From Deltaproteobacteria bacterium RBG_13_43_22 (GTDB taxonomy: Bacteria > Desulfobacterota > RBG-13-43-22), in the NCBI GenBank assembly GCA_001797675.1, contig MGQB01000001.1, positions 321,531-385,530 of the forward strand: a DNA stretch of 64,000 nt. Reading direction: 5' to 3'. The translations under genes were made by a program, and so were the position numbers. Under the pieces are notes generated by a model that saw only the letters and a program-made list of their open reading frames with translations, was not told the DNA's origin and did not search any database. This document shows positions 5,777 to 21,998 of this stretch, in pieces (the stretch's first letter is position 1; each line of letters starts with the position of its first letter).

Positions 5777-6433
5777 TTAAAATGATTCTTTTTTATAAGC
5801 CATCCCGATGAGCGGGTAAACGACCATACCGGAGAGGACGGCAATATCCTCGGCCGACAGGTATTTCGAGATGCTGGCATCAAAGAGAAGGTTGCCGTCG
5901 GGCGGAAATTCATCGTCTCCGGCCCAGAGAATCAGACAGACGGAAATTCGGGGGAAAACCTGAAAGCCCAGGGAGGCATCCCCTTCTTCCCGTTGTACTC
6001 CGCCCAGGCCGGTTCCCAGTTCGATTAGCAGTCCTGGATTTTTCCCAAAGGTCTGAACCAGAGGATCCTTGGCCCTTTTGGCAAAAGCCGAATAATAAAA
6101 TTCCCCGGAAGGGATTTCGCGGAAGGTGACCCAGGTATTGGTCAGAGGAGCACCCGTGGCCTGAATCAGGTAATGCATGATCAGTCCCTGTTCCTGGAGC
6201 GAGAGTTCTTTTGTGCCTTCAGGGGTAATCACTTCCCCCTCAGGCCAAGTGATTTGGATCTTCCGGTTGAGAAAAGGTAATTCAAGGACGGCCCCTTTTG
6301 TTTCCAGCTGATAAACCGTTCCACTGTTCCGGGCCAGGGCTTGCGGGTCTTTTTGTTTGAATGCCTCCCGGGCAATCTCCAGAGTGTTCTTATAATCGTC
6401 TACTCGGGGCATCGGGCTTCCTTTTGGCTGCAT
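5777..6433 (-). CDS. Conserved hypothetical protein (possibly DUF3786-like)
   Basis: 218 aa ORF in consistent coding context. It overlaps the cysKS 3' end by 34 nt. No recognisable catalytic motifs. Confidence 0.4.
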   Translation of the reverse strand: MQPKGSPMPRVDDYKNTLEIAREAFKQKDPQALARNSGTVYQLETKGAVLELPFLNRKIQITWPEGEVITPEGTKELSLQEQGLIMHYLIQATGAPLTNTWVTFREIPSGEFYYSAFAKRAKDPLVQTFGKNPGLLIELGTGLGGVQREEGDASLGFQVFPRISVCLILWAGDDEFPPDGNLLFDASISKYLSAEDIAVLSGMVVYPLIGMAYKKESF

Positions 6434-8784
6434 TGGGTGCAGATGGTCTTGTCTTTGAGATCGATCAGACGATAGCCCCGGGCGCAGATCTGATCCCGCA
6501 GCCGGTCGGCCTCGGCGAACTCTTTCCGCCGGCGGGCCGTTTCCCGGCGATTTAACAGGTTTTGCACTTCCACCGGCAACCCCGTTTCCGGGAAGTCCAG
6601 GATCTGCAATACTGAATTGACATTTCGCAGGACCTGGTCGATTTCCGTAAATTCCGAGGCTGAGATCCTTTTTCCCACCAGGATGGGATTGATGGCCCGG
6701 ACTAGTTTGAATAAGGCCGACAGGGCCAGGGCAATGTTCAGGTCATCATCCATAGCCTCCTTAAACTGGGTCTTAAAAAGGAAAAGGGTTTCTCCCACCT
6801 CGGCGGTTTCCTCCGAACCGGGCTGAACCGTATAGAGTTTTTGAATAAATTCATCCAGACGTTTTAAGGTCTTCCGTGAGGCCTCCAGGGACTTCAGGGT
6901 AAAGGCCAGGGGTTTACGGTAGTGGGTGGAAAGGAGCCAGTAGCGGATCTCGCGTCCGGTAAACCCCTGCTCCAGGATATCCCGCAAGGTCCGGGCATTG
7001 CCGGCGGCCCTGGACATCTTCTTTCCATCCACCATGACCAATTCGCTGTGCAGCCAATAATTGACGAATTTTTTCCCGCTGGCGGCTTCGCTGATGGCGA
7101 TTTCATTTTCATGATGGGGGAAAATCAGATCCACGCCGCTGGTATGGATGTCAAAGGTCTCTCCCAGGTATTTCTGGGCCATGGCTGAACACTCGATATG
7201 CCACCCCGGACGGACATTACCCCATTCGCTGGCCACATAAATTCCTTTTTTCAGTTCCGCCAGATTGGAGCGCTTGAGCAGCGTAAAGTCCCTGGGGTTG
7301 TCCTTCTCATATTCATCCAGGTCCACGGTTTTTCCCACCTGGATCTGTTTTAAATCCACCCGGGAAAGACGGCCGTAATCCTTAAACCGGGAGATGTCAA
7401 AATATAAGGATCGGAGTTTTTCATAGGCAAAGCCTTTGTTCAGTAACGTCCGGGTCAGGGCGAGCATGTCTTCCACATGTTCACTGGCCTTGGGATAATG
7501 GGCGGCCCGCTTGATTCGCAGGGTATCGATGTCTTTTAAGAATTCTTCCGCATAATAACCGGTAAACTCGTTTAAAGGCTGCCCTGCGGCCTCGGCCCCA
7601 AAAATGGTCCGATCATGCAAATCAGTGATATTCATGATATGGAAAACTTCCAGGCCCTTGAATTCCAGATAACGGCGCAGCAGGTCGGCCATAACAAACC
7701 GTCGGCAAGGACCCAGATGAAGCAGATTATCCACCGTCGGACCGCAGGAATAGATGGAGACTTTCCCTTCTTTTATCGGGACAAAAGCTTCTTTTTCCCG
7801 GGTCAGGGTATTATAAAAGACCAAGCCGGCCTTTTCCTTTTCCGCAAACAGGGTTGTGCTCAGATACCGTTCTCCTCCGTCCGGGCAGATGACCACGATC
7901 AGCCCTTTTTTCATATTTTGGGCCTGATGCAGGGCTGCGGCGACAGCCGCTCCGGAACTCATCCCCACCAGGAGCCCTTCTTCCCGGGCCATCTTCCGGG
8001 CGATATCAAAGGCTTCCTCGTCTTCCACATGCATTACTTCGTCCAGGATGCTTTTATCATAGATCCCCGGTTTATAGGATTCTTTCATGTTTTTGAGTCC
8101 CTGTATCTTATGGCCCAGATAAGGTTCCACCCCGATGATTTTAATGGCCGGATTCAATTCTTTCAGCCGCCGGGTCATACCCATCAGGGTTCCGGTGGTC
8201 CCCATGGTGGCCACGACCATGGTCACCTTACCTTTGGTTTGTTCCCAGATTTCCAGCCCTGTGCCCTGGTAATGGGCGTCGATATTGTCCGGATTGTTAA
8301 ATTGATCGAGAAGGCAGTATTGGTCCGGATGCTCCCGGGCCATCTGATACACCGTTTCGATGGAACCGTCGGTCCCCTGGTGGGCCGGGGTCAAAAGGAG
8401 CCTGGCCCCGTAAGCCTTGAGGATCTTTTGCCGTTCCACACTGGCCGATTCAGGCATGGTCAACAGGAGAGGATAACCTTTGACGGCCGCCACCATGGCC
8501 AAACCGATTCCGGTGTTTCCGGAAGTGGCTTCGATGATGGTCTTGCCTCTGGTCAGGACTCCGCTTTTTTCCGCGGACTCGATCATAGACAGGGCGATGC
8601 GGTCCTTGACCGATCCCCCGGGATTAAAGGATTCTATTTTAGCCCAGAGGGTTACCTTTTTATTGGGATTCAACCGGTTCAATCGGACCAGGGGTGTATG
8701 ACCGATCAGTTTTAGGATGTCGGGATAAGCCTGTTTCATGACCTTACTGCTTTCTTTTGGTTTTCTTTTTATTGATTCGTTCAT
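6400..8784 (-). CDS. Fusion protein: cysteine synthase (O-acetylserine sulfhydrylase, PLP) N-terminal domain plus cysteinyl-tRNA synthetase-like C-terminal domain
   Basis: Residues 16-320 match CysK/CysM (GHTPLVRLN, PGGSVKDR, GNTG, SSGAAV). Residues 325-794 align end to end with CysRS, including zinc ligands (YSCGPT, WHIECSAM, HHENE) and the anticodon-binding region (DDDLNIALALSALF). The class-I motifs are altered: HIGH reads HLGP and KMSKS reads KMSRA. The probable start is the internal ATG at 8739 (MKQAYPDILKLIGHTPLV). Confidence 0.8.
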   Translation of the reverse strand: MNESIKRKPKESSKVMKQAYPDILKLIGHTPLVRLNRLNPNKKVTLWAKIESFNPGGSVKDRIALSMIESAEKSGVLTRGKTIIEATSGNTGIGLAMVAAVKGYPLLLTMPESASVERQKILKAYGARLLLTPAHQGTDGSIETVYQMAREHPDQYCLLDQFNNPDNIDAHYQGTGLEIWEQTKGKVTMVVATMGTTGTLMGMTRRLKELNPAIKIIGVEPYLGHKIQGLKNMKESYKPGIYDKSILDEVMHVEDEEAFDIARKMAREEGLLVGMSSGAAVAAALHQAQNMKKGLIVVICPDGGERYLSTTLFAEKEKAGLVFYNTLTREKEAFVPIKEGKVSIYSCGPTVDNLLHLGPCRRFVMADLLRRYLEFKGLEVFHIMNITDLHDRTIFGAEAAGQPLNEFTGYYAEEFLKDIDTLRIKRAAHYPKASEHVEDMLALTRTLLNKGFAYEKLRSLYFDISRFKDYGRLSRVDLKQIQVGKTVDLDEYEKDNPRDFTLLKRSNLAELKKGIYVASEWGNVRPGWHIECSAMAQKYLGETFDIHTSGVDLIFPHHENEIAISEAASGKKFVNYWLHSELVMVDGKKMSRAAGNARTLRDILEQGFTGREIRYWLLSTHYRKPLAFTLKSLEASRKTLKRLDEFIQKLYTVQPGSEETAEVGETLFLFKTQFKEAMDDDLNIALALSALFKLVRAINPILVGKRISASEFTEIDQVLRNVNSVLQILDFPETGLPVEVQNLLNRRETARRRKEFAEADRLRDQICARGYRLIDLKDKTICTQCSQKEARCPE

Positions 8785-13188: not shown

Positions 13189-14403
13189 TTAATAAATCAC
13201 CTCTTCCTTTTCAAGCTCCGCCATCTCTTCCCCGGACAGGCCGAGCATCTGCCCAAAAATTTCTTCGTTGTGCTCCCCAAGCAATGGAGAATGACGCTGT
13301 ATCCGGGCCGGGGTTTCCGAAAACCGCCAGGGAGGGCCGACAACCCAATCCTTTCCCATAACAGGATGATCTACTTGGAAATATACTCCCCGTGCTTGTA
13401 GGTGAGGATCCTGAAAGAGCCCTTCCGAACTCAATGACGGGGCAGAACCTACCCCTGCTTCTTGTAATACTTTGGTGACTTCATAATAATCCCGGTCCAT
13501 GGTCCATTGGTTAATAATCTCGTCCAGTACCCCCTGATTTTTAAGTCTGCCTTTAGAAGAAGAAAACCTGGCATCCTCCATCAATTCCGGCTTCCCCATG
13601 ACCCGGCAAAGGGCCTGCCATTCCTCATCAGTGGCCACGGCAATACTGACCCAGTTATCCTCCCCTTGGCAGCGGTAGCAATTATGAGGCGCCAGGACCT
13701 CATCCTTATTGCCTTTTCGCCCGGCCACCCTGTGGTTCATGAAATAATCCAAAAATAAATCTCCGGCCAGAACCGCAATGGTCTCCTGAGAGGCCAAGTC
13801 GATATACTGTCCTTCCCCGGTCCTCTGACGATAGATCAAGGCGGCCAGTATAACAAAGGTTGAGGTGGTTGCGCTGCGAAGATCCATGGACCCCATAAAG
13901 TTGCTGGGCGGCCAGTCCTCATAGCCGGTAATATGGGAAACACCACCCAGGGCGGCAAAAGTCGGGGCGTAACCCACATATTCTCTCTCCGGTCCGGTTT
14001 GGCCGCAAGACGACGAGGAAAGGTAAATCAGGTCGGATTTGATATCCCTCAACACCTCATATCCCAAACCTAACCTCGGGATTACGCCGGGTCTCATATT
14101 CTCCATGACCACATCGCTTACCCGTACCAGTTGTTTGGCGATTTCAACCGCCTTCGGTTTGGACAAGTTCAGAGTAACGCTTTTTTTGTTCAGATTAAGA
14201 TTATTGAAAACGGAAGATTCATTCGGGCCTGAAAATCTTCTGCCGGTACTGAAGGAAAGATTTCTGGCGTGGTCCAGTCTCCTTCGACTTTCTACTTTAA
14301 TGACCTCGGCTCCAAGAAACCCCAACAAACAGGTGGCATAAGGGCCGGCCCAGGCCGAGGTGAATTCCGTAACACGAATTCCCGCTAACGGTCCATTATT
14401 CAT
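13189..14403 (-). CDS. CoA-transferase family III (CaiB/BaiF/Frc-like)
   Basis: 404 aa protein with N-terminal motif LAGIRVTEFTSAWAGPYATCLLGFLGAEVIKVE typical of family-III CoA-transferases. Confidence 0.8.
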   Translation of the reverse strand: MNNGPLAGIRVTEFTSAWAGPYATCLLGFLGAEVIKVESRRRLDHARNLSFSTGRRFSGPNESSVFNNLNLNKKSVTLNLSKPKAVEIAKQLVRVSDVVMENMRPGVIPRLGLGYEVLRDIKSDLIYLSSSSCGQTGPEREYVGYAPTFAALGGVSHITGYEDWPPSNFMGSMDLRSATTSTFVILAALIYRQRTGEGQYIDLASQETIAVLAGDLFLDYFMNHRVAGRKGNKDEVLAPHNCYRCQGEDNWVSIAVATDEEWQALCRVMGKPELMEDARFSSSKGRLKNQGVLDEIINQWTMDRDYYEVTKVLQEAGVGSAPSLSSEGLFQDPHLQARGVYFQVDHPVMGKDWVVGPPWRFSETPARIQRHSPLLGEHNEEIFGQMLGLSGEEMAELEKEEVIY

Positions 14404-14533: not shown

Positions 14534-15748
14534 TTAAAAAACCCCCTCGTTTTTAAGGGCGGCCAGTTCTTCGTTGGAATATCCCAAATGACGGCCATAG
14601 ATCTCCTCATTGTGTTCACCCAGCATAGGGGCGGCCTGGACCAGTTGCCAGGGTGTTTTTGAAAAACGATAGGCCGAGGAAGGAAAGGGGATTTTTCCCA
14701 AGACCGGGTGCTCCAAATCAACAAAAAAATTTCTGGCCTTGAATTGTTCCGAATGATAAATGTCCTCCGCAGTATTTACCGGCGCGATGGGGCAGCTTAA
14801 AGCCTGCCCCCTGCGGAATATCTCTTCTTTGGTATGTTGCATGGTCCACTCCATAATCCATTCATTGATTTGGCCGGCATTCTCTGACCGGACTAAAGCA
14901 TTTTGACAACCATCCTCTTTGGCCCACTCCGGATCGCCGATTAGTTTAACCAGGGCCTGCCATTGATGCTCCTCCGGCATTACAACCACGATATAGCCGT
15001 CCTTACAAGGCATGATACCGCCGGGCATCCGTCTGACCTGATCGCCACCCCGGCTTATGACCACCTGGTCGTTAGCGAAGGTAACACTCTCCACCCGCTG
15101 CATGGACATCAGGGCCTCCTGTTTCGACATTTCGATGTACTGTCCCTTGCCGGTCAGGACCTTCCAATAGAAAGCGGCGGTGACGGCTACTACAGCCACG
15201 AGTCCTACGTCAAATCCGCTGCTGTGACCGCCGACCTTGACCGGTGGACGGTCCATGTCCAGAGCGGGGATGGGCAGCAAATATCCCTGGCCGCTGACGT
15301 GAACGGTGTTGAGTTGGTAGGCCTTATAATCCTTAAAGGGACCGCGATCTCCATAGGGGGTGATGGATATCATGATCAGACCGGGATTAAGGCTCTTGAG
15401 CTTTTCATAGCCCAGATCCAAGGCCTCCAGTTCACCCGGGGGCCGGTCCTCAATGAGCACATCCGTTTTTTCAACCAGTTTTTTAAAGATCTTTTTCCCT
15501 TCCGGTTTTTTAACGTCCAGCGTCAGGCCTTTTTTATTGCTGTTCAAATAGAGAAACAGTCCGCTTTTTTCCTGATGGGGGATATCTCCCGGGAACGGAC
15601 CCCGTCTTCTGGAATCATCACCGGTGTGGGGCGGCTCAATTTTAAGAACCTCGGCGCCCATATCGGCTAATAGTTTGGAACAATAGGGTCCGCTGACCAT
15701 ATTACAATATTCTACGATCTTCATGCCCTCCAGGGCCCTTGGGGTCAT
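14534..15748 (-). CDS. CoA-transferase family III (paralog)
   Basis: 404 aa protein with LEGMKIVEYCNMVSGPYCSKLLADMGAEVLKIEPP. Tandem paralog of the 13189..14403 gene. Confidence 0.8.
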   Translation of the reverse strand: MTPRALEGMKIVEYCNMVSGPYCSKLLADMGAEVLKIEPPHTGDDSRRRGPFPGDIPHQEKSGLFLYLNSNKKGLTLDVKKPEGKKIFKKLVEKTDVLIEDRPPGELEALDLGYEKLKSLNPGLIMISITPYGDRGPFKDYKAYQLNTVHVSGQGYLLPIPALDMDRPPVKVGGHSSGFDVGLVAVVAVTAAFYWKVLTGKGQYIEMSKQEALMSMQRVESVTFANDQVVISRGGDQVRRMPGGIMPCKDGYIVVVMPEEHQWQALVKLIGDPEWAKEDGCQNALVRSENAGQINEWIMEWTMQHTKEEIFRRGQALSCPIAPVNTAEDIYHSEQFKARNFFVDLEHPVLGKIPFPSSAYRFSKTPWQLVQAAPMLGEHNEEIYGRHLGYSNEELAALKNEGVF

Positions 15749-15867: not shown

Positions 15868-18123
15868 TTATACGGCCTCAACTCTGCATCGAATATAACG
15901 GTGATAAGGGGTCCCGGCCAGGCGATCCCGATGAGTGTTTTTAGCCAACCTGTTCGCATTCGCTCCATATACTTTCCCCTGATGCACCAGGCCGAATCCA
16001 TGGGGTATCACCAGGTAACCGGGCCTGGTCACTTCCGTGACTTCAAGTTCGATTGTTTCTTCCCCGGCTTCGGTGGTCACTTTAACCATCTGGCCGTCAC
16101 TGAATCCGAACTTCGCCGAATCCTTCGGGTGCATAGTCGCCGTACAAGCCCGTTTCCCTTTGTTCCAGTCGGGATCGCGCATCTGCGTATTGGCATTCAC
16201 ATCCCAGTGCCGTCCGGAGGACATGACCAATGGGTATGCTTCCCCGTCTTCACTCAGTCGGTTCAGTTCCGGTACCGGTTCAATTTCCTCAAGCCATTGT
16301 CCCATCTCGGGTACATCCAGGTTGATACGTCCATCCTCGGTAGCCAATGACTTAAAATGGTCCCATGTTTTAGAATCGACTGAACCAATCCACAAACCTT
16401 CGGGATGTTCAAGGGTCGCTTTAAAAATATCTTCCCCAAGAGTGGGGGTTGGCTTGAGCCCTTCCCGTTCGGCTATTTCCTGAAATGAGGTCGGCAGGCT
16501 TTGCAAAGACCCCCAAAGGGATGCCAAATGAACCGAATCCAATTTTTTCCCCAGGGTTTTCCCCAAAATATAGGGCAAACTTCTTACGACCGCAGGATTA
16601 GTTTTTAAATATTGTGTCAGAGCCATCCCAAATTTTAACCGGTCTCCGCTATCGACTGCTCTATACAGTGTTTCAGGAATGTCGGGGACCAAACCCAAAC
16701 GGTCGGCTATTCGCAGGAATATTTCTCCGGCTTCGAGTCGTTCTCCTTCCGGGGTGAGGGCCGGATGTCGAACCTGCATGAATATCTTTGGGAAATCTCT
16801 TCTCATGCCCCCATCCCAGGATTCATACCCTGACCGGACTGGAAGAATATAATGGGATAGGGTGGCCGTTTCGGTCATGGCCAATTCCATGGTAACCAAA
16901 AGGTCCAGACGTTTGAAGGCCTTTTCATAGACGGAGGTATCGGCATAGGATCTTAGTGGGTTGGCGGTGCTCACAATCACTGCACGAAGTCGTTCGGGGT
17001 GGTCCGACAATATCTCTTCGGGCATCGCATTCGGGGGATAAACATTGTTGATGGCCGGAAAATTCGTCACCAGGGTTCGCCACATACGAGCCTCGCGTTC
17101 ATCGGGAGTTTCCTTTTTTCTCCTGCCATCGCGCGTATTAGCTGGAAAAATATTACCACCCTCAACCCCAATCCGCCCGCTGACCGCCCGAAGCACATTC
17201 TCAAGATAGGAGATAAGCGTGCTGTGACGGTTCAAAAGTACACCCAGGTCGCTGTGATGGCTGGATTTACGGGTTGTAAACAGCCGGCAGATCTCTTTCA
17301 CCTTACCATAATCCAGTTCGCAGACCTCAAGGGCGGCTTTGGCGTCAAAACCGGCAAACCAGCTCTGAATCTTATCGAAGCCGTTAACGTGTTTTTCGAT
17401 ATATTCCTGGTCGTGCCACCCTTCTTTAAGAATGATGGATATCATCGCCCGGTAGAAAAGGGCATCCGTTCCCGGGCGGATGGGCAGGTGAATATGGGCG
17501 ATCTTGGCCGTCTCTGACAGGCGCGGATCAACGACCACCAACAACTTATCCGGGTCCTTACTGAATTTTGTGAGTACCCGGCGGGCCTGGGGGGTGTGAT
17601 GGCTCATCATCGGATTCCAGCCCACGAGTAAAAGCATATCGGTTTCATCAAGGTCCGGGTGGGTATGGAGGTTCTGATCGCCATAGGTTTTTCCATCCAC
17701 CCAAAATCTGCCGGTAAGCTCTTGAGCCAGGGCGGTATAAAAATACTGAGACCCCAACCCCCGAAGCAGATTAAACGCAAAGGGACCCTGCGCCGGACAA
17801 CCGATACTGCCGTTTCCCATCATCAAGGCCAGAGATCGCGGACCGTGTTCATTGACCATGTCGGAGAGTTTTGCGGCGATTTCGTCAATGGCCTGCTCCC
17901 AGGAGATTCTTTCAAATGAACCCCCCACCCTCTTAAGCGGATGCATCAGACGGTCGGCATGGTGCTGATAGAATTTGATGTTCAACCCCTTGCGGCAGGC
18001 ATACCCCTCGCTGAGCGGGTTGTCCTTGTCTCCGCGCACCTTAATGATTTGATTGTTCTCGACTCGAACCTCGAGTCCGCACTGATTGCCTCATAATACA
18101 CAGGATGTCTTTTTCCATTCCAT
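15868..18123 (-). CDS. Molybdopterin (MopB/DMSO reductase family) oxidoreductase, predicted selenoprotein with in-frame UGA at codon 11
   Basis: The ORF track starts at GTG 18039 (RGDKDNPLSEGYACRKG). The in-frame upstream sequence encodes MEWKKTSCVL-TGA-GNQCGLEVRVENNQIIKV, completing the N-terminal C-x2-[C/U]-x3-C-x27-C Fe-S motif of MopB proteins. The ATG at 18123 is preceded by a GAGGAGG ribosome-binding site. The TGA lies at 18091-18093. No Tat signal is present, so the protein is cytoplasmic. Confidence 0.75.
18058..18093 (-). promoter_or_regulatory. UGA codon plus SECIS-like stem-loop (GACUCGA-GGU-UCGAGUC) beginning 13 nt downstream of the UGA
   Basis: On the minus strand: TGA GGCAATCAGTGCG GACTCGA GGT TCGAGTC GAG. 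A perfect 7-bp stem with GGU in the apical loop, as in bacterial SECIS elements. Confidence 0.55.
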
Positions 18124-18207
18124 GGTAAAATCCTCCTCTTAATGGGATGATCTGGAGTGTGTCTTGGTTTTGATTAAATAGAATTTTAATCGGGCCTGTC
18201 CGTCATA

Positions 18208-18267: not shown

Positions 18268-18690
18268 TTAGACGATCTCTAAAAGCAATCGCCGTAAAAG
18301 GATCCGTTCTTCCAGGGTGAATCGGGAAAGCAAAATTTCATTGGCTTTTTCCCGTTCTTTAACCAGTCTTTTTCTTAAATCATTCGCTTTCTTTGAGGGG
18401 AGGAGTCGAACAATCCGTTTATCCCCCTTATCCCGCTGCTTCTTTATCCAGCCACCCTCGTCCATCCGGTCAAGGATCCCGGAAAGAGTGGCCTTATCAA
18501 TACTGAGCAGTTCACCCAGTTCAGCAGCTTTTATTTTTTCCTTTTGCCAAAGAACCTCCAACACCAAATATTGAATATTGGTCAATTTGTAGGGTTTGAG
18601 GCGGGTCTGAACAAGTCCATGGGCCTTCTGATAGGCCTTGGCCAGGAGAAAAATATAGCAATCCGTATTGATCAGTAAATTTTCAGGCAT
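18268..18690 (-). CDS. MarR family transcriptional regulator
   Basis: 140 aa winged-helix protein (LTNIQYLVLEVLWQKEKIKAAELGELLSIDKATLSGILDRMDEGGWIKKQRDKGDKRIV). Confidence 0.85.
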   Translation of the reverse strand: MPENLLINTDCYIFLLAKAYQKAHGLVQTRLKPYKLTNIQYLVLEVLWQKEKIKAAELGELLSIDKATLSGILDRMDEGGWIKKQRDKGDKRIVRLLPSKKANDLRKRLVKEREKANEILLSRFTLEERILLRRLLLEIV

Positions 18691-18982: not shown

Positions 18983-20425
18983 ATGTCTGAGCCTATTTTG
19001 CAGGAGTTACATTATCTTTTTCACCCCAAAAACATCGCCGTGGTCGGCGCATCCCCCAAGTCCGACCCCATGATGATGAATCAGGGGAACAACTATATCA
19101 AAGGTTCCATTGAACAGAATTTTTCAGGGAAAATATTTCCGGTTCACCCAGGGGCCAAAGCCATCCTTGGATTTCAGGCCTTTCCACGAGTCCGGGATAT
19201 CCCTGATTCGGTGGATCTGGTCATCTTCACCGTTCCGGCTGAGGCGTCTGTGGAGGTCATGAAGGATTGTGTCGAAAAAGGGGTGAAATTCGTCCATCTC
19301 TATACGGCGGGCTTCGGCGAATCCGGGCGGGAAGCTTTCGTGAAAATGGAAAAAAAACTGATCGATATGGCCCGAAAGAACGGCATACGGATTGTCGGAC
19401 CGAATTGTATGGGAATCTACTGCCCGGAAGGTGGTTTGGCTTTTCAGCCCTTTTTTCCTACGACACCCGGTCCGGTGGGATTTTTTTCCCAGAGCGGTCA
19501 AATGGCCGGGATGTTTGTCATGAATGCCGCGGCCCAAGGTTTGAGGTTCAGTAAGGTAGTCAGTTTTGGAAATGCCAGGGATTTAAAAGCCCATGATTTT
19601 CTAAACTACCTGGCCCAGGATGAGAAAACAAAAATCATCGGATCCTACCTGGAAGGATTGGAAGACGGAAGGTCCTTTATAGAAGCAGCCCGGAAAATAA
19701 CGCAAAAAAAGCCCATGGTTATTTTTAAAGGCGGGTTGACCGAAGGAGGATCCCGGGCGGCCATGTCTCATACGGCGGCGATCGCCGGTTCGTCCCGGAT
19801 TTGGAGGGCCTTATGCCGTCAGGCCGGGATCATTTCCGTGACCTCTCTGGAGGAGTTGGTTTTCACGCTTTCCGCTTTACAGAGGATGCCGTTACCCGGA
19901 GGAAAGAACATGGTCATTCTCGGCGGGGCCGGAGGCGGAAGCGTCACCATGACCGATCAAGCCGAAGCCGAAGGGCTTAAAGTACCCCAGCTTTCACCAG
20001 AGACTATCCGGCAGCTCGAAACCATCGTGCCCCCTCAGGGCACGAGTGTGAAAAATCCCCTGGACGTGGGAAGGCGTTTTTTCGCCGAGGGGAATTTTCC
20101 CAAAATTCTGGAACTGCTCCGGGACGATCCCAACGTCGATGCCCTGATCTTCATGCAGCCCATTGCCATGTTCAGTCGATTTGGCGGCCGGGCCGGAATA
20201 AGCATGCTCCTAAAAATGACCATTGCCGGGCAAAAAATTTTAAAGAAACCAATGGTTCTTGTGGTAGAAAAAAATGACGGGTTCGGCGGTGACCGTATTG
20301 TGAAAGAAGCAATTGAGCGGTATCATGCCGCCCATCTGGCCACCTTTCCCGATTTTCGGCTGGCCGTCCGGGTGACCGGTTATCTGGCCGAATATCAGGC
20401 CTTCTTGGATCGGCAGGAAGGTTAA
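18983..20425 (+). CDS. Acyl-CoA synthetase (NDP-forming) alpha-like, CoA-binding/ligase-CoA domain protein
   Basis: 480 aa protein with N-terminal CoA-binding Rossmann motif (NIAVVGASPKSDP..IFPVHPGAKAILGFQAFPRVRDIPDSVDLVIFTVPA..RIVGPNCMGIY), as in ADP-forming acetyl-CoA synthetase alpha subunits. Confidence 0.7.
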   Translation: MSEPILQELHYLFHPKNIAVVGASPKSDPMMMNQGNNYIKGSIEQNFSGKIFPVHPGAKAILGFQAFPRVRDIPDSVDLVIFTVPAEASVEVMKDCVEKGVKFVHLYTAGFGESGREAFVKMEKKLIDMARKNGIRIVGPNCMGIYCPEGGLAFQPFFPTTPGPVGFFSQSGQMAGMFVMNAAAQGLRFSKVVSFGNARDLKAHDFLNYLAQDEKTKIIGSYLEGLEDGRSFIEAARKITQKKPMVIFKGGLTEGGSRAAMSHTAAIAGSSRIWRALCRQAGIISVTSLEELVFTLSALQRMPLPGGKNMVILGGAGGGSVTMTDQAEAEGLKVPQLSPETIRQLETIVPPQGTSVKNPLDVGRRFFAEGNFPKILELLRDDPNVDALIFMQPIAMFSRFGGRAGISMLLKMTIAGQKILKKPMVLVVEKNDGFGGDRIVKEAIERYHAAHLATFPDFRLAVRVTGYLAEYQAFLDRQEG

Positions 20426-20549
20426 ATCCGGGAGAAAACAAGGTTGATAGGCTGAAGACTGAAGGTTGTTAGTGCCTTTAGCCTTTACTTTCGTTCTTCA
20501 GCCTTCAGTCTTGGATCATTTCTTCTCCCAACACATTCGGATTATAAAA

Positions 20550-21998
20550 ATGGAGACACGTATGTCCTTTCAGGAACTGGAAACCATTTTACACCCCCGG
20601 TCAGTGGCCGTAGTCGGCGCTTCGGTCAATACTTTTTCATTCGGTTACAGTTATGCCCATCATCTGGTGGAGTATGGTTTTAAGGGACCGATCTACCTGG
20701 TCAATCCCAACTATCCGGAAATCGTTGGATTGAAAACCTACCCCAGTGTGCGGGATATTCCGGGACCGGTTGATTTCGCCATTTCCTGCGTCAACGCTTC
20801 TCAGGTGACCGCTATGCTGGAAGATCTGGCGGAGAAAAACGTTAAATGTGTACACTTATACACCGCCCGCTTTAGTGAAACCGGCCGGCAAGATGCCGCC
20901 GAACTGGAACAAACCGTACTGACACTGGCTCGCCGCAAAGGTATTCGCCTCATCGGCCCGAACTGCATGGGTGTTTATTATCCCCAAATGGGGCTCTCTT
21001 TCGGTTTTAATCTCCCCAAGGATTCCGGCCCCGCAGGTATGATCTCCCAATCCGGAGGCGGTGCCTCCGGTTTTGTGCATCTGGCCTCTTTGCGGGGAAT
21101 CCGGTTCAGCAAGGTCATCAGCTACGGCAATGGCCTGGATCTGACTGAATGCGATTACCTGGATTATTTTATTCAGGATAGAGAAACCAAAATCGTCCTT
21201 CTTTATGTCGAAGGGGTAAAAGACGGCCGGCGGTTTTTTGATACGCTAAGTCGGGCCGCCCGGGTCAAACCGGTGATCGTTATGAAGGGCGGCCGGGGCC
21301 AGGCCGGCTCACGGATGACCTTTTCTCACACCGCATCTTTGGCCGGTTCTTTTCCGGTTTGGGAAGCCTTGGTCAAGCAGGCCGGGGCTGTTTCGGCGGG
21401 TGATTTTGATGAGTTGATCGACCTGACAGTAGCATTTCGTTTTTTGCCGCAGGTGACCGGAAAGCGGGTCGGTGTCATCGGCGGCGGGGGCGGTCCCAGC
21501 GTTATTGCCGCCGAAGAGTGTGAAGAATCGGGACTGGAAGTGATCCCTATCCCTCAGGATATGCGTAAAGAACTCAAGGACCGGGGAGTCAACATCTGGG
21601 ACTGGATCAGCAATCCTGTGGATCTCTCGATTGTCGCCGGTTCGGGAGTTACGGATATCGATATGCTTCACCTCATGGGCAAGCATCCGGCATTCGATAT
21701 ACTCATGGCCAATGTCAACGAATGGGTCTTCATGACCCTGGCCTCGGATGAAAGATTCCTGGGTATGAAAAACCAGGTAAAAAACCATATCAGCCTGAGG
21801 GATACCTACCCTAAACCTTTCGTGGTGATCTTCGGGGAACGGGGGGTCATCACTGGGGAACAGGATAACTGGCGCTGGAAAGTGATTGCCGAAGCGCGGG
21901 AAGAGTTGATCGGGGCCGGGATGGCCACTTTTCCGACTTTCAGACGGGCGGCCATCGCCGTACGAAAAGTGCAGGAGTACTTCGCCGGATTGGATTAA
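20550..21998 (+). CDS. Acyl-CoA synthetase (NDP-forming) alpha-like paralog
   Basis: METRMSFQELETILHPRSVAVVGAS...RLIGPNCMGVYYPQ. The start is moved to the ATG at 20550, in register with the paralog's N-terminus. The ORF track's 20466 start is an upstream extension. Confidence 0.7.
   Translation: METRMSFQELETILHPRSVAVVGASVNTFSFGYSYAHHLVEYGFKGPIYLVNPNYPEIVGLKTYPSVRDIPGPVDFAISCVNASQVTAMLEDLAEKNVKCVHLYTARFSETGRQDAAELEQTVLTLARRKGIRLIGPNCMGVYYPQMGLSFGFNLPKDSGPAGMISQSGGGASGFVHLASLRGIRFSKVISYGNGLDLTECDYLDYFIQDRETKIVLLYVEGVKDGRRFFDTLSRAARVKPVIVMKGGRGQAGSRMTFSHTASLAGSFPVWEALVKQAGAVSAGDFDELIDLTVAFRFLPQVTGKRVGVIGGGGGPSVIAAEECEESGLEVIPIPQDMRKELKDRGVNIWDWISNPVDLSIVAGSGVTDIDMLHLMGKHPAFDILMANVNEWVFMTLASDERFLGMKNQVKNHISLRDTYPKPFVVIFGERGVITGEQDNWRWKVIAEAREELIGAGMATFPTFRRAAIAVRKVQEYFAGLD

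Follow-up and report, generated by a model that had tools for sequence, protein, structure and literature searches.

A molybdopterin oxidoreductase gene of Deltaproteobacteria bacterium RBG_13_43_22 with a predicted selenocysteine at a cysteine position of its iron-sulfur cluster motif

The gene described here lies on the minus strand of the window, the whole 64-kb (64,000-nucleotide) stretch of DNA that was analysed, and covers positions 15868 to 18123, as judged from its translation, Pfam domains and orthologues. From the ATG at 18123 (18121-18123) to the stop at 15868 it has 751 codons, one of which, codon 11 (18091-18093), is an in-frame TGA. A ribosome-binding site, GAGGAGG, is located 8 nt upstream of the ATG (18132-18138, minus strand). 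ORF finders and gene callers place the start at a GTG further downstream (18037-18039, minus strand), which gives a protein of 723 aa, and this is the form found in the database entry P0001. The original prediction had reported this GTG start, the ATG with its GAGGAGG site and an in-frame TGA within the 84 nt upstream of the GTG, and all three were recovered when the DNA was read and translated; 18123-18040 is in frame and encodes MEWKKTSCVL-TGA-GNQCGLEVRVENNQIIK. The GTG at 18039 has no properly spaced Shine-Dalgarno sequence, and the equivalent codon in the closest relative (L005) is GTT, hence no start codon there. Between the TGA and the GTG lie 17 codons, that of Cys15 among them, which are conserved as protein. 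P0001 and the other shortened database entries are artefacts that the TGA causes in gene calling.

A gene for a MarR-family regulator (18268-18690, minus strand; Pfam MarR) is directly upstream of the oxidoreductase gene. A MarR homologue adjoins the orthologue in at least 20 related loci and is the only neighbour that is conserved. Downstream are two genes for family-III CoA-transferases (14534-15748 and 13189-14403, both minus strand; PF02515), and no CoA-transferase homologue was found beside the orthologues in the other loci. The two CoA-transferase and two CoA-ligase-like genes beside the oxidoreductase gene were rejected as a clue to function because they are not conserved with the orthologues. 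Regulators of the MarR or TetR type belong to the gene context, and in other clades the orthologues have Fer4, FmdE-like and NMO neighbours.

When U was replaced by C, a Pfam search found the three domains of the MopB/DMSO-reductase superfamily in the usual order, all above their gathering scores: Molybdop_Fe4S4 (PF04879, residues 1-51, 17971-18123, E = 1.1e-14), the molybdopterin oxidoreductase domain (PF00384, residues 58-473, 16705-17952, E = 2.7e-28) and the molydopterin dinucleotide-binding domain (PF01568, residues 632-742, 15898-16230, E = 6.7e-16), each on the minus strand. The Fe4S4 domain over residues 1-51 is complete only if the TGA is read through. It carries the FS0 motif of MopB enzymes, C-x2-C-x3-C-x(n)-C followed by x-K-G, in the form C8-x2-U11-x3-C15...C43-R-K45-G, in which the second position is predicted Sec and not Cys. 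This agrees with the proposal that the upstream frame supplies the missing cysteine motif and that the TGA occupies its second cysteine position. C8, C11, C15, C43, K45 and G46 are invariant in an alignment of 30 orthologues, and the motif aligns with the FS0 motifs of F420-dependent formate dehydrogenase and acetylene hydratase. The protein has no signal or twin-arginine leader.

The closest solved structures are those of F420-dependent formate dehydrogenase, acetylene hydratase (2E7Z) and HDCR FdhF. A fold search matched formate dehydrogenase, acetylene hydratase and Nap with a TM score of about 0.65. The search used an AlphaFold model built from the alignment of a 76%-identical Cys orthologue, with a pLDDT of 73 overall but below 50 in the N-terminal Fe-S domain, where it is unreliable, and the model served for the fold search only. 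At the place where related enzymes bear the Sec, Cys or Ser that ligates Mo or W, the protein has an invariant Q134-E135-L-T-G (17710-17724, minus strand). By alignment only, the Sec-His of formate dehydrogenase is opposite A133-Q134 and Cys141 of acetylene hydratase is opposite E135. Assignment as a formate dehydrogenase was rejected, since the protein reaches 222 of the 666 bits required by TIGR01591 and 94 of the 814 required by TIGR01553, and the U/C-H-x-P ligand of Mo/W is missing, with neither Cys nor Sec in the segment opposite the Sec-His of 9t1s. Among the best matches (sequence E = 3.3e-52, Foldseek E = 1.1e-32) is the acetylene hydratase of Pelobacter acetylenicus, a cytoplasmic MopB monomer that has a single FS0 cluster and no selenium, but this function was also rejected: its W ligand Cys141 is replaced by E135, and Asp13, which follows its second FS0 cysteine, is replaced by G12. 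The residue after position 11 is G, A, E or P in the relatives. The monomeric, ferredoxin- or flavodoxin-dependent assimilatory nitrate reductases NarB, NasA and NasC are likewise cytoplasmic, of about 700-750 aa, and contain FS0 and Mo-bisMGD without a leader. NasC is the second-best NCBIfam match, although its 168 bits are far under the cut-off of 1100; the Cys ligand of Mo in these enzymes is not conserved here, and the gene context is not that of nitrate assimilation. No model of NCBIfam release 20 reaches its cut-off on this protein. The enzyme probably reduces or hydrates a small molecule, is controlled by a MarR/TetR regulator and receives electrons from a ferredoxin-type partner.

Full-length orthologues of 745-757 aa with 63-76% identity keep the same N-terminal Fe4S4 domain and have Cys in place of the TGA; orthologues uniformly starting downstream, which the original prediction had named as evidence against the upstream frame, were absent. 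An unbiased scan of species-representative genomes found TGA at codon 11 in seven loci (L002, L005, L006, L009, L013, L014 and L020), and the remaining matched loci all had TGC or TGT there. A TGA-specific pattern found 35 further metagenome contigs. In a relaxed scan, 42 loci had the pattern C*CC and 68 had CCCC (TGC/TGT) with no other pattern, and none of these loci had TGA at one of the other three motif cysteines. Alignment of the N-termini, the check proposed earlier, thus placed Cys in 68 and TGA in 42 sequences at the same codon. The 42 TGA contigs, from Desulfobacteraceae-type genomes and metagenomes, represent 31 distinct sequences; the TGA and Cys sequences are mutually related, and these counts are therefore not independent. 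Three of the 42 contigs have more defects, namely a second TGA at a Leu in L085 and truncations in L099 and L108.

All 31 distinct TGA forms have an ATG, GTG or TTG start 9-10 codons upstream of the TGA, and in all 31 a purine-rich AAGGAG/GGAGG stretch precedes the start codon. Before the TGA, W-K-K-T-x-C-x-L is kept despite synonymous variation (AAA/AAG, ACA/ACC/ACG, TTG/TTA/CTG/CTA), and after it GNxCGLEV...C-R-K-G is kept and the reading frame is conserved. Purifying selection acts on both sides of the TGA. On a neighbour-joining tree the Cys and TGA forms are interleaved, with Cys as the root state and at least nine changes. Cys and Sec forms have switched repeatedly among the orthologues.

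The TGA is followed after 13 nt by a bSECIS-like hairpin, GACUCGA-GGU-UCGAGUC (18061-18077, minus strand), which was identified by sequence, folding and comparison and lies in codons 16-22 (G-L-E-V-R-V-E). It has a 7-bp stem, a 3-nt GGU loop, a distance of 20 nt from UGA to loop and an energy of -8.0 kcal/mol. Published bSECIS criteria ask for an apical loop of 3-9 nt that has G in its first two nucleotides, an upper stem of 4-16 bp, a UGA-to-loop distance of 16-37 nt and an MFE of -7.5 kcal/mol or lower. The perfect 7-bp hairpin of the original prediction was found in place, and its proposed likeness to bacterial SECIS elements holds for loop, stem, spacing and energy in the window.

Such a hairpin, its triloop opening on GG at 17-20 nt past the UGA, was present in 31/31 TGA forms but in 0/15 same-clade and 6/54 other-clade Cys forms. 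The contiguous stem was longer in Sec than in Cys forms (Mann-Whitney p = 2e-12; the sequences are related). All 31 TGA forms have bSECIS geometry. The energy limit of -7.5 kcal/mol was reached by the bare contiguous stem in 10 of the 31 and by a 37-nt local fold in 30, not always via this hairpin. The hairpin occurs in two registers, both with a GG-starting triloop, which are formed from synonymous codons of one peptide. In type A, 94.7% of cells are paired (19 distinct sequences) and there is one compensatory C-G to U-A pair; this covariation is modest, its score being reached by 22 of 500 shuffles. In ten other TGA forms the hairpin is shifted, has 8 bp and carries a GGA loop (type B); this type shows wobble changes only and no compensatory pair. 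For single sequences, the 71-nt fold was not significant (z = -0.35), synonymous recoding with window-wide codon usage gave such a hairpin in about 16% of cases (0.16), and an earlier synonymous shuffle with a codon table from the region itself gave a per-sequence p of about 0.25. The hairpin alone is weak evidence and statistically not unusual, whereas the comparative evidence is strong. Because single sequences are not significant against the recoding null, the argument from the hairpin rests on the comparison of 31/31 with 0/15. An Rfam search of 17900-18200 with E up to 10 found no SECIS family, which says little because bacterial SECIS elements are diverse.

Taken as a whole, these data support the interpretation of the TGA as a selenocysteine codon, as read from sequence comparison. 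It is likely that the gene encodes an approximately 82-kDa cytoplasmic Mo/W-bis-pyranopterin enzyme in which UGA codon 11 specifies selenocysteine as a predicted ligand of FS0. Translation would begin at ATG 18123, and when the ribosome arrives at the UGA (18093-18091) the hairpin at 18077-18061, with its GG-starting triloop, might bring in SelB with Sec-tRNASec. Sec would then go in at codon 11 and translation would proceed through the remaining Fe4S4 domain. We infer this SelB-dependent decoding of the UGA from the position and shape of the hairpin.

Sec11 would replace the second Cys of C-x2-C-x3-C...C. Since it would stand at a ligand position of this motif, Sec11 is predicted to join the three remaining cysteines as a ligand of the N-terminal [4Fe-4S] cluster FS0, which transfers electrons to or from the pterin cofactor. 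U11 aligns with Cys12 of acetylene hydratase, and Cys12 is the FS0 ligand which has a bridging water in common with one MGD (PMC12096430). Given this equivalence, a selenium ligand would sit on the path from the cluster to the pterin, where it could tune the potential, the coupling or the robustness of the enzyme. With somewhat less confidence than for Sec itself, we favour the reading that Sec11 is a true cubane [4Fe-4S] ligand facing the pterin of a Mo/W enzyme, gained and lost many times as a Cys/Sec exchange in the Desulfobacteraceae.

Several known systems resemble this protein in part. FdhF/FdhA and FwdB belong to the same superfamily, have the same domain order (Fe4S4, molybdopterin, dinucleotide-binding), and likewise encode Sec by an in-frame UGA that is followed closely, within the coding region, by a SECIS hairpin; they too have Cys orthologues. 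In these enzymes, however, Sec lies near residue 140 (U-H-x-P) and ligates Mo/W, whereas here the UGA is codon 11 and falls in the Fe-S motif. HdrA, MvhD/VhuD/FrhD and BamF also have C-x2-U near an Fe-S cluster, occur in anaerobes including Deltaproteobacteria, and exist in both Sec and Cys forms. Their folds are unrelated to MopB, and in recent structures the Sec is read as forming a redox pair with Cys beside the cluster; the Cys that is replaced in the MopB protein, by contrast, belongs to the canonical ligands of a cubane. The same idea of a TGA in place of a [4Fe-4S]-ligating Cys has been proposed for predicted electron-transfer subunits and small ferredoxins, there as here by comparative genomics only, but these are other families and none is a catalytic MopB subunit or an FS0 cluster.

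In the structures of HdrA and of BamF/MvhD-type proteins, Sec lies beside Fe-S clusters as a Se-S redox partner and not as a ligand, and a ligand role can therefore not be assumed from proximity alone. An alternative is that Sec is inserted at codon 11 but does not bind the cluster, which could then be altered, for example to a [3Fe-4S] cluster; the selenol would be a redox-active Se-S group, a ligand of another metal or a nucleophile facing the substrate. HdrA Sec197 and BamF Sec19, which cryo-EM places near Fe-S clusters and for which a redox-active selenylsulfide pair has been proposed, fit this alternative, as does the fact that only the second motif Cys is ever replaced. In acetylene hydratase, the stretch that follows the second FS0 Cys extends through Asp13 to the active site (PMC12096430), which is also compatible with a non-ligand role. 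In solved MopB enzymes with four motif cysteines, however, all four are cluster ligands, for example Cys9, Cys12, Cys16 and Cys46 of acetylene hydratase (PMC12096430). All four Cys are invariant in the Cys-form orthologues, and the free exchange of Sec and Cys among close relatives argues for an equivalent role of the two residues. We consider the non-ligand alternative unlikely and prefer Sec11 as a cluster ligand.

Read-through of the UGA by means other than a Sec system is less probable again, and we regard it as very unlikely. In this case the UGA would be read as Cys or Trp through a near-cognate or suppressor tRNA, or as Cys through a Cys-loaded tRNASec, and the hairpin would merely slow the ribosome. 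In its favour, the orthologues have Cys at the aligned position, with codons that differ from TGA by a single base, and the Sec machinery was found neither in the window nor in the orthologue loci: selA, selB, selD and tRNA-Sec were absent from the 64 kb (ARAGORN; Pfam on 31 ORFs), and no Sec machinery or tRNA-Sec was seen in the orthologue loci (ARAGORN on all loci). In-frame TGA scans of the window and of the flanks of the TGA-form loci gave no accepted further selenoprotein gene; a candidate in L098 was rejected as a histidine phosphatase ending at its normal stop. An alternative genetic code was rejected, as there is no other conserved in-frame TGA in the 64 kb and stop usage is standard, with 19 of 20 long ORFs in the window ending in TAA/TAG and one in TGA. 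Read-through without Sec is opposed by the SelB-element features of both hairpin registers, with a small loop opening on G-G 17-20 nt past the UGA, and by the retention of TGA at one codon across at least nine switches, which needs efficient and specific decoding. The host lineage is also known for large selenoproteomes, the Desulfobacteraceae/Desulfobacterales being among the most selenoprotein-rich bacteria (PMC1976440, PMC13326102). Decoding of the UGA as Sec is the better explanation.

That the TGA is a genuine stop, with a product starting at GTG 18039 or later and lacking the Fe-S domain, or that it marks a pseudogene or a sequencing error, is the least credible explanation: gene callers do give 723 aa (P0001) and other downstream starts in related TGA forms, and three TGA contigs carry the further defects described above, but the identical TGA codon occurs in 42 contigs with intact frames, the 10 codons before and 17 codons after it are conserved as amino acids with synonymous changes, the downstream start is neither conserved (L005) nor served by a properly spaced ribosome-binding site, and its product would lack three of the four cluster ligands.

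It had been suggested that a Sec at the Fe-S position may be undescribed, and this is consistent with a 2026 table of prokaryotic selenoprotein families, which lists no MopB proteins other than FdhA and FwdB, both with Sec as the Mo/W ligand (UHxP), and in which a family with Sec at the FS0 position has no entry (PMC13188914), in a literature survey that was not exhaustive. The failure of every NCBIfam model to reach its cut-off points the same way, and no catalytic MopB subunit is among the candidates in the deep-Sep supplements. Public gene calls shorten the TGA-form genes, P0001 and many others, by about 30-100 residues, so that the Fe-S domain is lost. Pipelines restricted to catalogued Sec positions may also overlook these genes.

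To our knowledge, Sec in known selenoenzymes either ligates a catalytic metal (Mo/W in formate dehydrogenase and FwdB, and Ni in hydrogenases) or takes part in thiol-type chemistry as a redox-active chalcogen. If the ligand reading is true, selenium would have a third use, in which Sec stands in for a canonical Cys ligand of a [4Fe-4S] cluster that transfers electrons. Such a use has so far been predicted only for a few ferredoxin-like proteins, while the structures of HdrA and BamF favour a Se-S role. Selenium would then serve to tune an electron-transfer cluster and neither a thiol-type redox site nor a catalytic metal, and closely related Sec and Cys isoenzymes would allow a direct comparison. 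The many close Sec/Cys pairs of one monomeric enzyme would make the effect of selenium on an Fe-S cluster directly addressable, including its potential, spin state, oxygen tolerance and coupling to the pterin.

Comparison of related sequences supports the reading of the in-frame TGA in the MopB gene as selenocysteine (Sec): TGA and Cys codons pair at one position (42 and 68 loci), a downstream hairpin accompanies every distinct TGA form (31/31), and the two states have switched at least nine times on a tree. The mechanical ORF of this gene runs from GTG 18039 to 15868 on the minus strand (723 aa). The 84 nt 5' of this GTG are in frame, and from ATG 18123 the sequence encodes MEWKKTSCVL-TGA-GNQCGLEVRVENNQIIK-V..., with 751 codons to 15868 and the TGA, read in the sequence at codon 11 (18093-18091, minus strand), as the sole stop in between. 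The ribosome-binding site GAGGAGG (18138-18132, minus strand) lies 8 nt before the ATG, and the hairpin GACUCGA-GGU-UCGAGUC (18077-18061, minus strand) begins 13 nt after the TGA. When Cys was put in for the TGA, Pfam found Molybdop_Fe4S4 at residues 1-51 (E = 1.1e-14), the Molybdopterin domain at 58-473 and Molydop_binding at 632-742. The original prediction had described the upstream frame with TGA at the second cluster Cys, the ATG with its ribosome-binding site and the 7-bp GGU-loop hairpin, and all of its statements on the sequence of this gene were correct. The protein lacks a signal or twin-arginine leader and is thus cytoplasmic.

Among the hits of a protein search were the window's own product, entered as a truncated 723-aa protein (P0001), and many orthologues of 63-83% identity. 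Full-length orthologues (745-757 aa) have the Fe4S4 domain, with the motif M-x-WKKT-x-C-V-L-C-x-N-x-C-G-L-E-V, and a large minority of entries begin at varied downstream starts without this domain. At codon 11 the orthologues had Cys or TGA, the two states that the original prediction had named. Among 80 related loci from an unbiased scan with a single genome per species, seven (L002, L005, L006, L009, L013, L014 and L020) have TGA exactly at the second motif Cys codon, L005 being the closest at 80% identity; this codon is TGC or TGT in all remaining matched loci. A TGA-specific degenerate DNA pattern matched 35 metagenome contigs, and TGA carriers total 42 loci, or 31 distinct sequences. When each of the four Cys positions was allowed to be a stop, C*CC occurred 42 times, CCCC 68 times and other patterns never.

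Every one of the 31 distinct TGA forms has ATG, GTG or TTG 9-10 codons upstream of the TGA, with AAGGAG/GGAGG before this start. Codons between this start and the TGA show synonymous variation (AAA/AAG; ACA/ACC/ACG; TTG/TTA/CTG/CTA; TGT/TGC) and the peptide W-K-K-T-[STA]-C-[VIM]-L is fixed; 3' of the TGA, the reading frame and the other two Cys ligands are conserved. The orthologues do not uniformly start downstream: the annotated GTG is GTT in L005, the upstream frame is conserved, and a product from GTG 18039 would miss three of the four cluster ligands. The conserved TGA, the upstream start, the synonymous variation and the non-conserved GTG therefore rule out, in practice, a pseudogene, a sequencing error or a true stop, the same codon being present in 42 loci with the frame conserved on both sides. 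Three of the 42 TGA contigs carry extra defects, namely another TGA in L085 (nt 1741) in place of a conserved Leu (LENV-L-RA), a TAG near the contig end of the truncated L099 (nt 5186) and loss of homology in the truncated L108 (nt 1098), and these interruptions may reflect gene decay or misassembly. Many public protein entries (P0001, P0002, P0004, P0034, P0041, P0044, P0045, P0053, P0056, P0058 and others) are N-terminally truncated to ~650-723 aa without PF04879. This is a systematic mis-annotation, caused by the in-frame TGA where the DNA was examined.

A single-sequence fold of 71 nt of the window was unremarkable alone (z = -0.35), and ~16% of synonymous recodings of C-G-L-E-V-R-V give such a hairpin. 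Across the family, 31/31 TGA forms had the hairpin, compared with 0/15 same-clade and 6/54 other-clade Cys forms, the frequency in Cys forms equalling the null rate. Sec forms had longer stems than Cys forms (Mann-Whitney p = 2e-12, for sequences that are not phylogenetically independent). The TGA forms use two registers, each built from synonymous codons of one peptide. Type A, G(G/A)CU(C/U)GA-GGU-UC(G/A)(A/G)GUC, occurs in 21 sequences including the window, with 94.7% of cells paired and one compensatory C-G to U-A pair via U-G intermediates. Type B, UGCGGACU-GGA-AGUUCG(C/U)A, spans nt +13 to +31 after the TGA in 10 sequences (L020, L082, L083, L085, L086, L089, L092, L094, L103 and L111), and its 8-bp core is paired in 10/10. 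It is a second SECIS solution 3-4 nt upstream of type A, reached purely via synonymous codons of C-G-L-E-V-R. According to published constraints, a bacterial SECIS element has a 3-9 nt loop with G at its first two positions, a 4-16 bp stem, 16-37 nt of spacing and an MFE no higher than -7.5 kcal/mol (PMC13188914). Both registers match this geometry, as had been predicted for the window, with a GG-starting triloop 17-20 nt past the UGA and an energy of -8.0 kcal/mol for the window hairpin; -7.5 kcal/mol was reached by the bare stem in 10/31 TGA forms and by a 37-nt local fold in 30/31. An Rfam search of the hairpin region matched no family.

When 94 distinct proteins were placed on a neighbour-joining tree, U and C forms were intermixed inside one clade (motif C-x-L-[C/U]-x-N-x-C), with neighbouring pairs such as L004_C/L006_U, L010_C/L013_U and L018_C/L082_U. 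Fitch parsimony required at least nine changes from a Cys root. In the other large clade (C-A-Q-N-C), the unbiased genome scan showed Cys throughout; Sec forms of this clade would have escaped the metagenome pattern. Paralogues occur: one locus, L049, holds two tandem Cys-form copies (5247 and 7992, +), and in the MAG Meg22_1618_Bin_163 a Sec form (L009) coexists with an other-clade Cys form (L025). The relatives come from Desulfobacteraceae/Desulfobacterales MAGs, a lineage very rich in selenoproteins (PMC1976440; PMC13326102). Neither the 64-kb window nor the fetched loci contained tRNA-Sec or sel genes. The window has no other conserved in-frame TGA, and its stop-codon usage is standard, TGA being a rare stop among 20 long ORFs (TAA 15, TAG 4, TGA 1).

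The UGA is almost certainly decoded to give a full-length Fe-S-containing enzyme, and codon 11 is likely to be Sec in a ligand position of the N-terminal [4Fe-4S] cluster, FS0. Translation would initiate at ATG 18123, the downstream hairpin would bring SelB with Sec-tRNASec to the UGA, and Sec would be inserted at codon 11; we infer decoding by SelB, for which the sequence signals are present. Residue 11 is the second FS0 Cys and corresponds to Cys12 of acetylene hydratase, which ligates the cluster and has a bridging water in common with one MGD (PMC12096430). Because of this match, Sec11 is predicted to be a direct [4Fe-4S] ligand on the pterin-facing side. Possibly Sec11 is instead not a cluster ligand and takes part, for example, in Se-S chemistry next to an altered cluster, and the HdrA and BamF structures suggest a non-ligand role of this type for their Sec. 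If Sec11 is a ligand, its facing the pterin side could be why the second FS0 Cys alone is replaced; that selenium affects potential, coupling or robustness is speculation.

Among solved structures, F420-dependent formate dehydrogenase, acetylene hydratase (2E7Z) and HDCR FdhF are the nearest (profile E-values 1e-54 to 1e-52, Foldseek TM ~0.65). No NCBIfam model reached its cut-off, Fdh-alpha scoring 222 bits against the 666 needed. The Sec-His of formate dehydrogenase aligns with A133-Q134, and Cys141 and Asp13, defining residues of acetylene hydratase (PMC12096430), align with E135 and G12. Both identities were rejected, because the defining residues differ and the NCBIfam scores are below cut-off. 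In the family alignment, an invariant Q134-E135-L-T-G (residues 134-138; 17710-17724, minus strand) occupies the site of the Sec, Cys or Ser Mo/W ligand of related enzymes. From the alignment, this suggests that Glu/Gln ligates Mo/W or that the protein supplies no ligand.

The gene order in the window, on one strand, is marR (18268-18690), the MopB gene and two family-III CoA-transferases; two tandem CoA_binding + Succ_CoA_lig genes resembling ADP-forming acyl-CoA synthetase alpha (18983-20425 and 20466-21998, +) are divergent from marR. MarR is the only neighbour conserved across the family, and the CoA-thioester context (CoA-transferases and CoA-ligase-like genes) was not common to the orthologous loci examined. 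Frequent neighbours in other clades are TetR and ferredoxin-domain, FmdE-like and NMO-type proteins. In the Cys-only clade, 26 loci have, immediately upstream, a ~365-435 aa protein whose C-terminus is a 2x[4Fe-4S] ferredoxin domain, and 12 have an FmdE-like protein immediately downstream, with NMO-type proteins in 20, MarR in 20 and TetR in 17 (for example L027 6580-7887, L071 10309-10926, L037 12009-13043 and L070 7246-7875); these are possible electron-transfer or maturation partners. We infer that the MopB gene of the window encodes a monomeric, cytoplasmic Mo/W enzyme under regulator control, with FS0 as its route of electron exchange with a ferredoxin-type partner. Elsewhere in the window, a 794-aa ORF (6400-8784, minus strand) combines a PALP domain (PLP-dependent, cysteine-synthase-like, residues 24-302) with a complete cysteinyl-tRNA synthetase (tRNA-synt_1e at 334-636, DALR_2 and CysS_C), unusually linking Cys biosynthesis to Cys charging in a single protein.

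A 2026 review table of prokaryotic selenoprotein families, both known and predicted, lists only FdhA and FwdB as MopB entries, with Sec as metal ligand in U-H-x-P, besides a small number of Sec sites predicted for ferredoxin-like Fe-S proteins (PMC13188914). The deep-Sep supplement has a predicted Sec in the ferredoxin motif of the FDH beta-subunit (CMHUADAPC) and no MopB catalytic-subunit candidate, and further literature yielded no mention of Sec at FS0 of such a subunit. The site therefore appears to be undescribed within the literature searched, consistent with the original prediction of an atypical and perhaps undescribed position. A Mo/W centre with Glu/Gln or no protein ligand would, if true, define an uncharacterised MopB subfamily. 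The recoding mechanism is already known, and what would be new is a position and role of Sec within a known enzyme superfamily.
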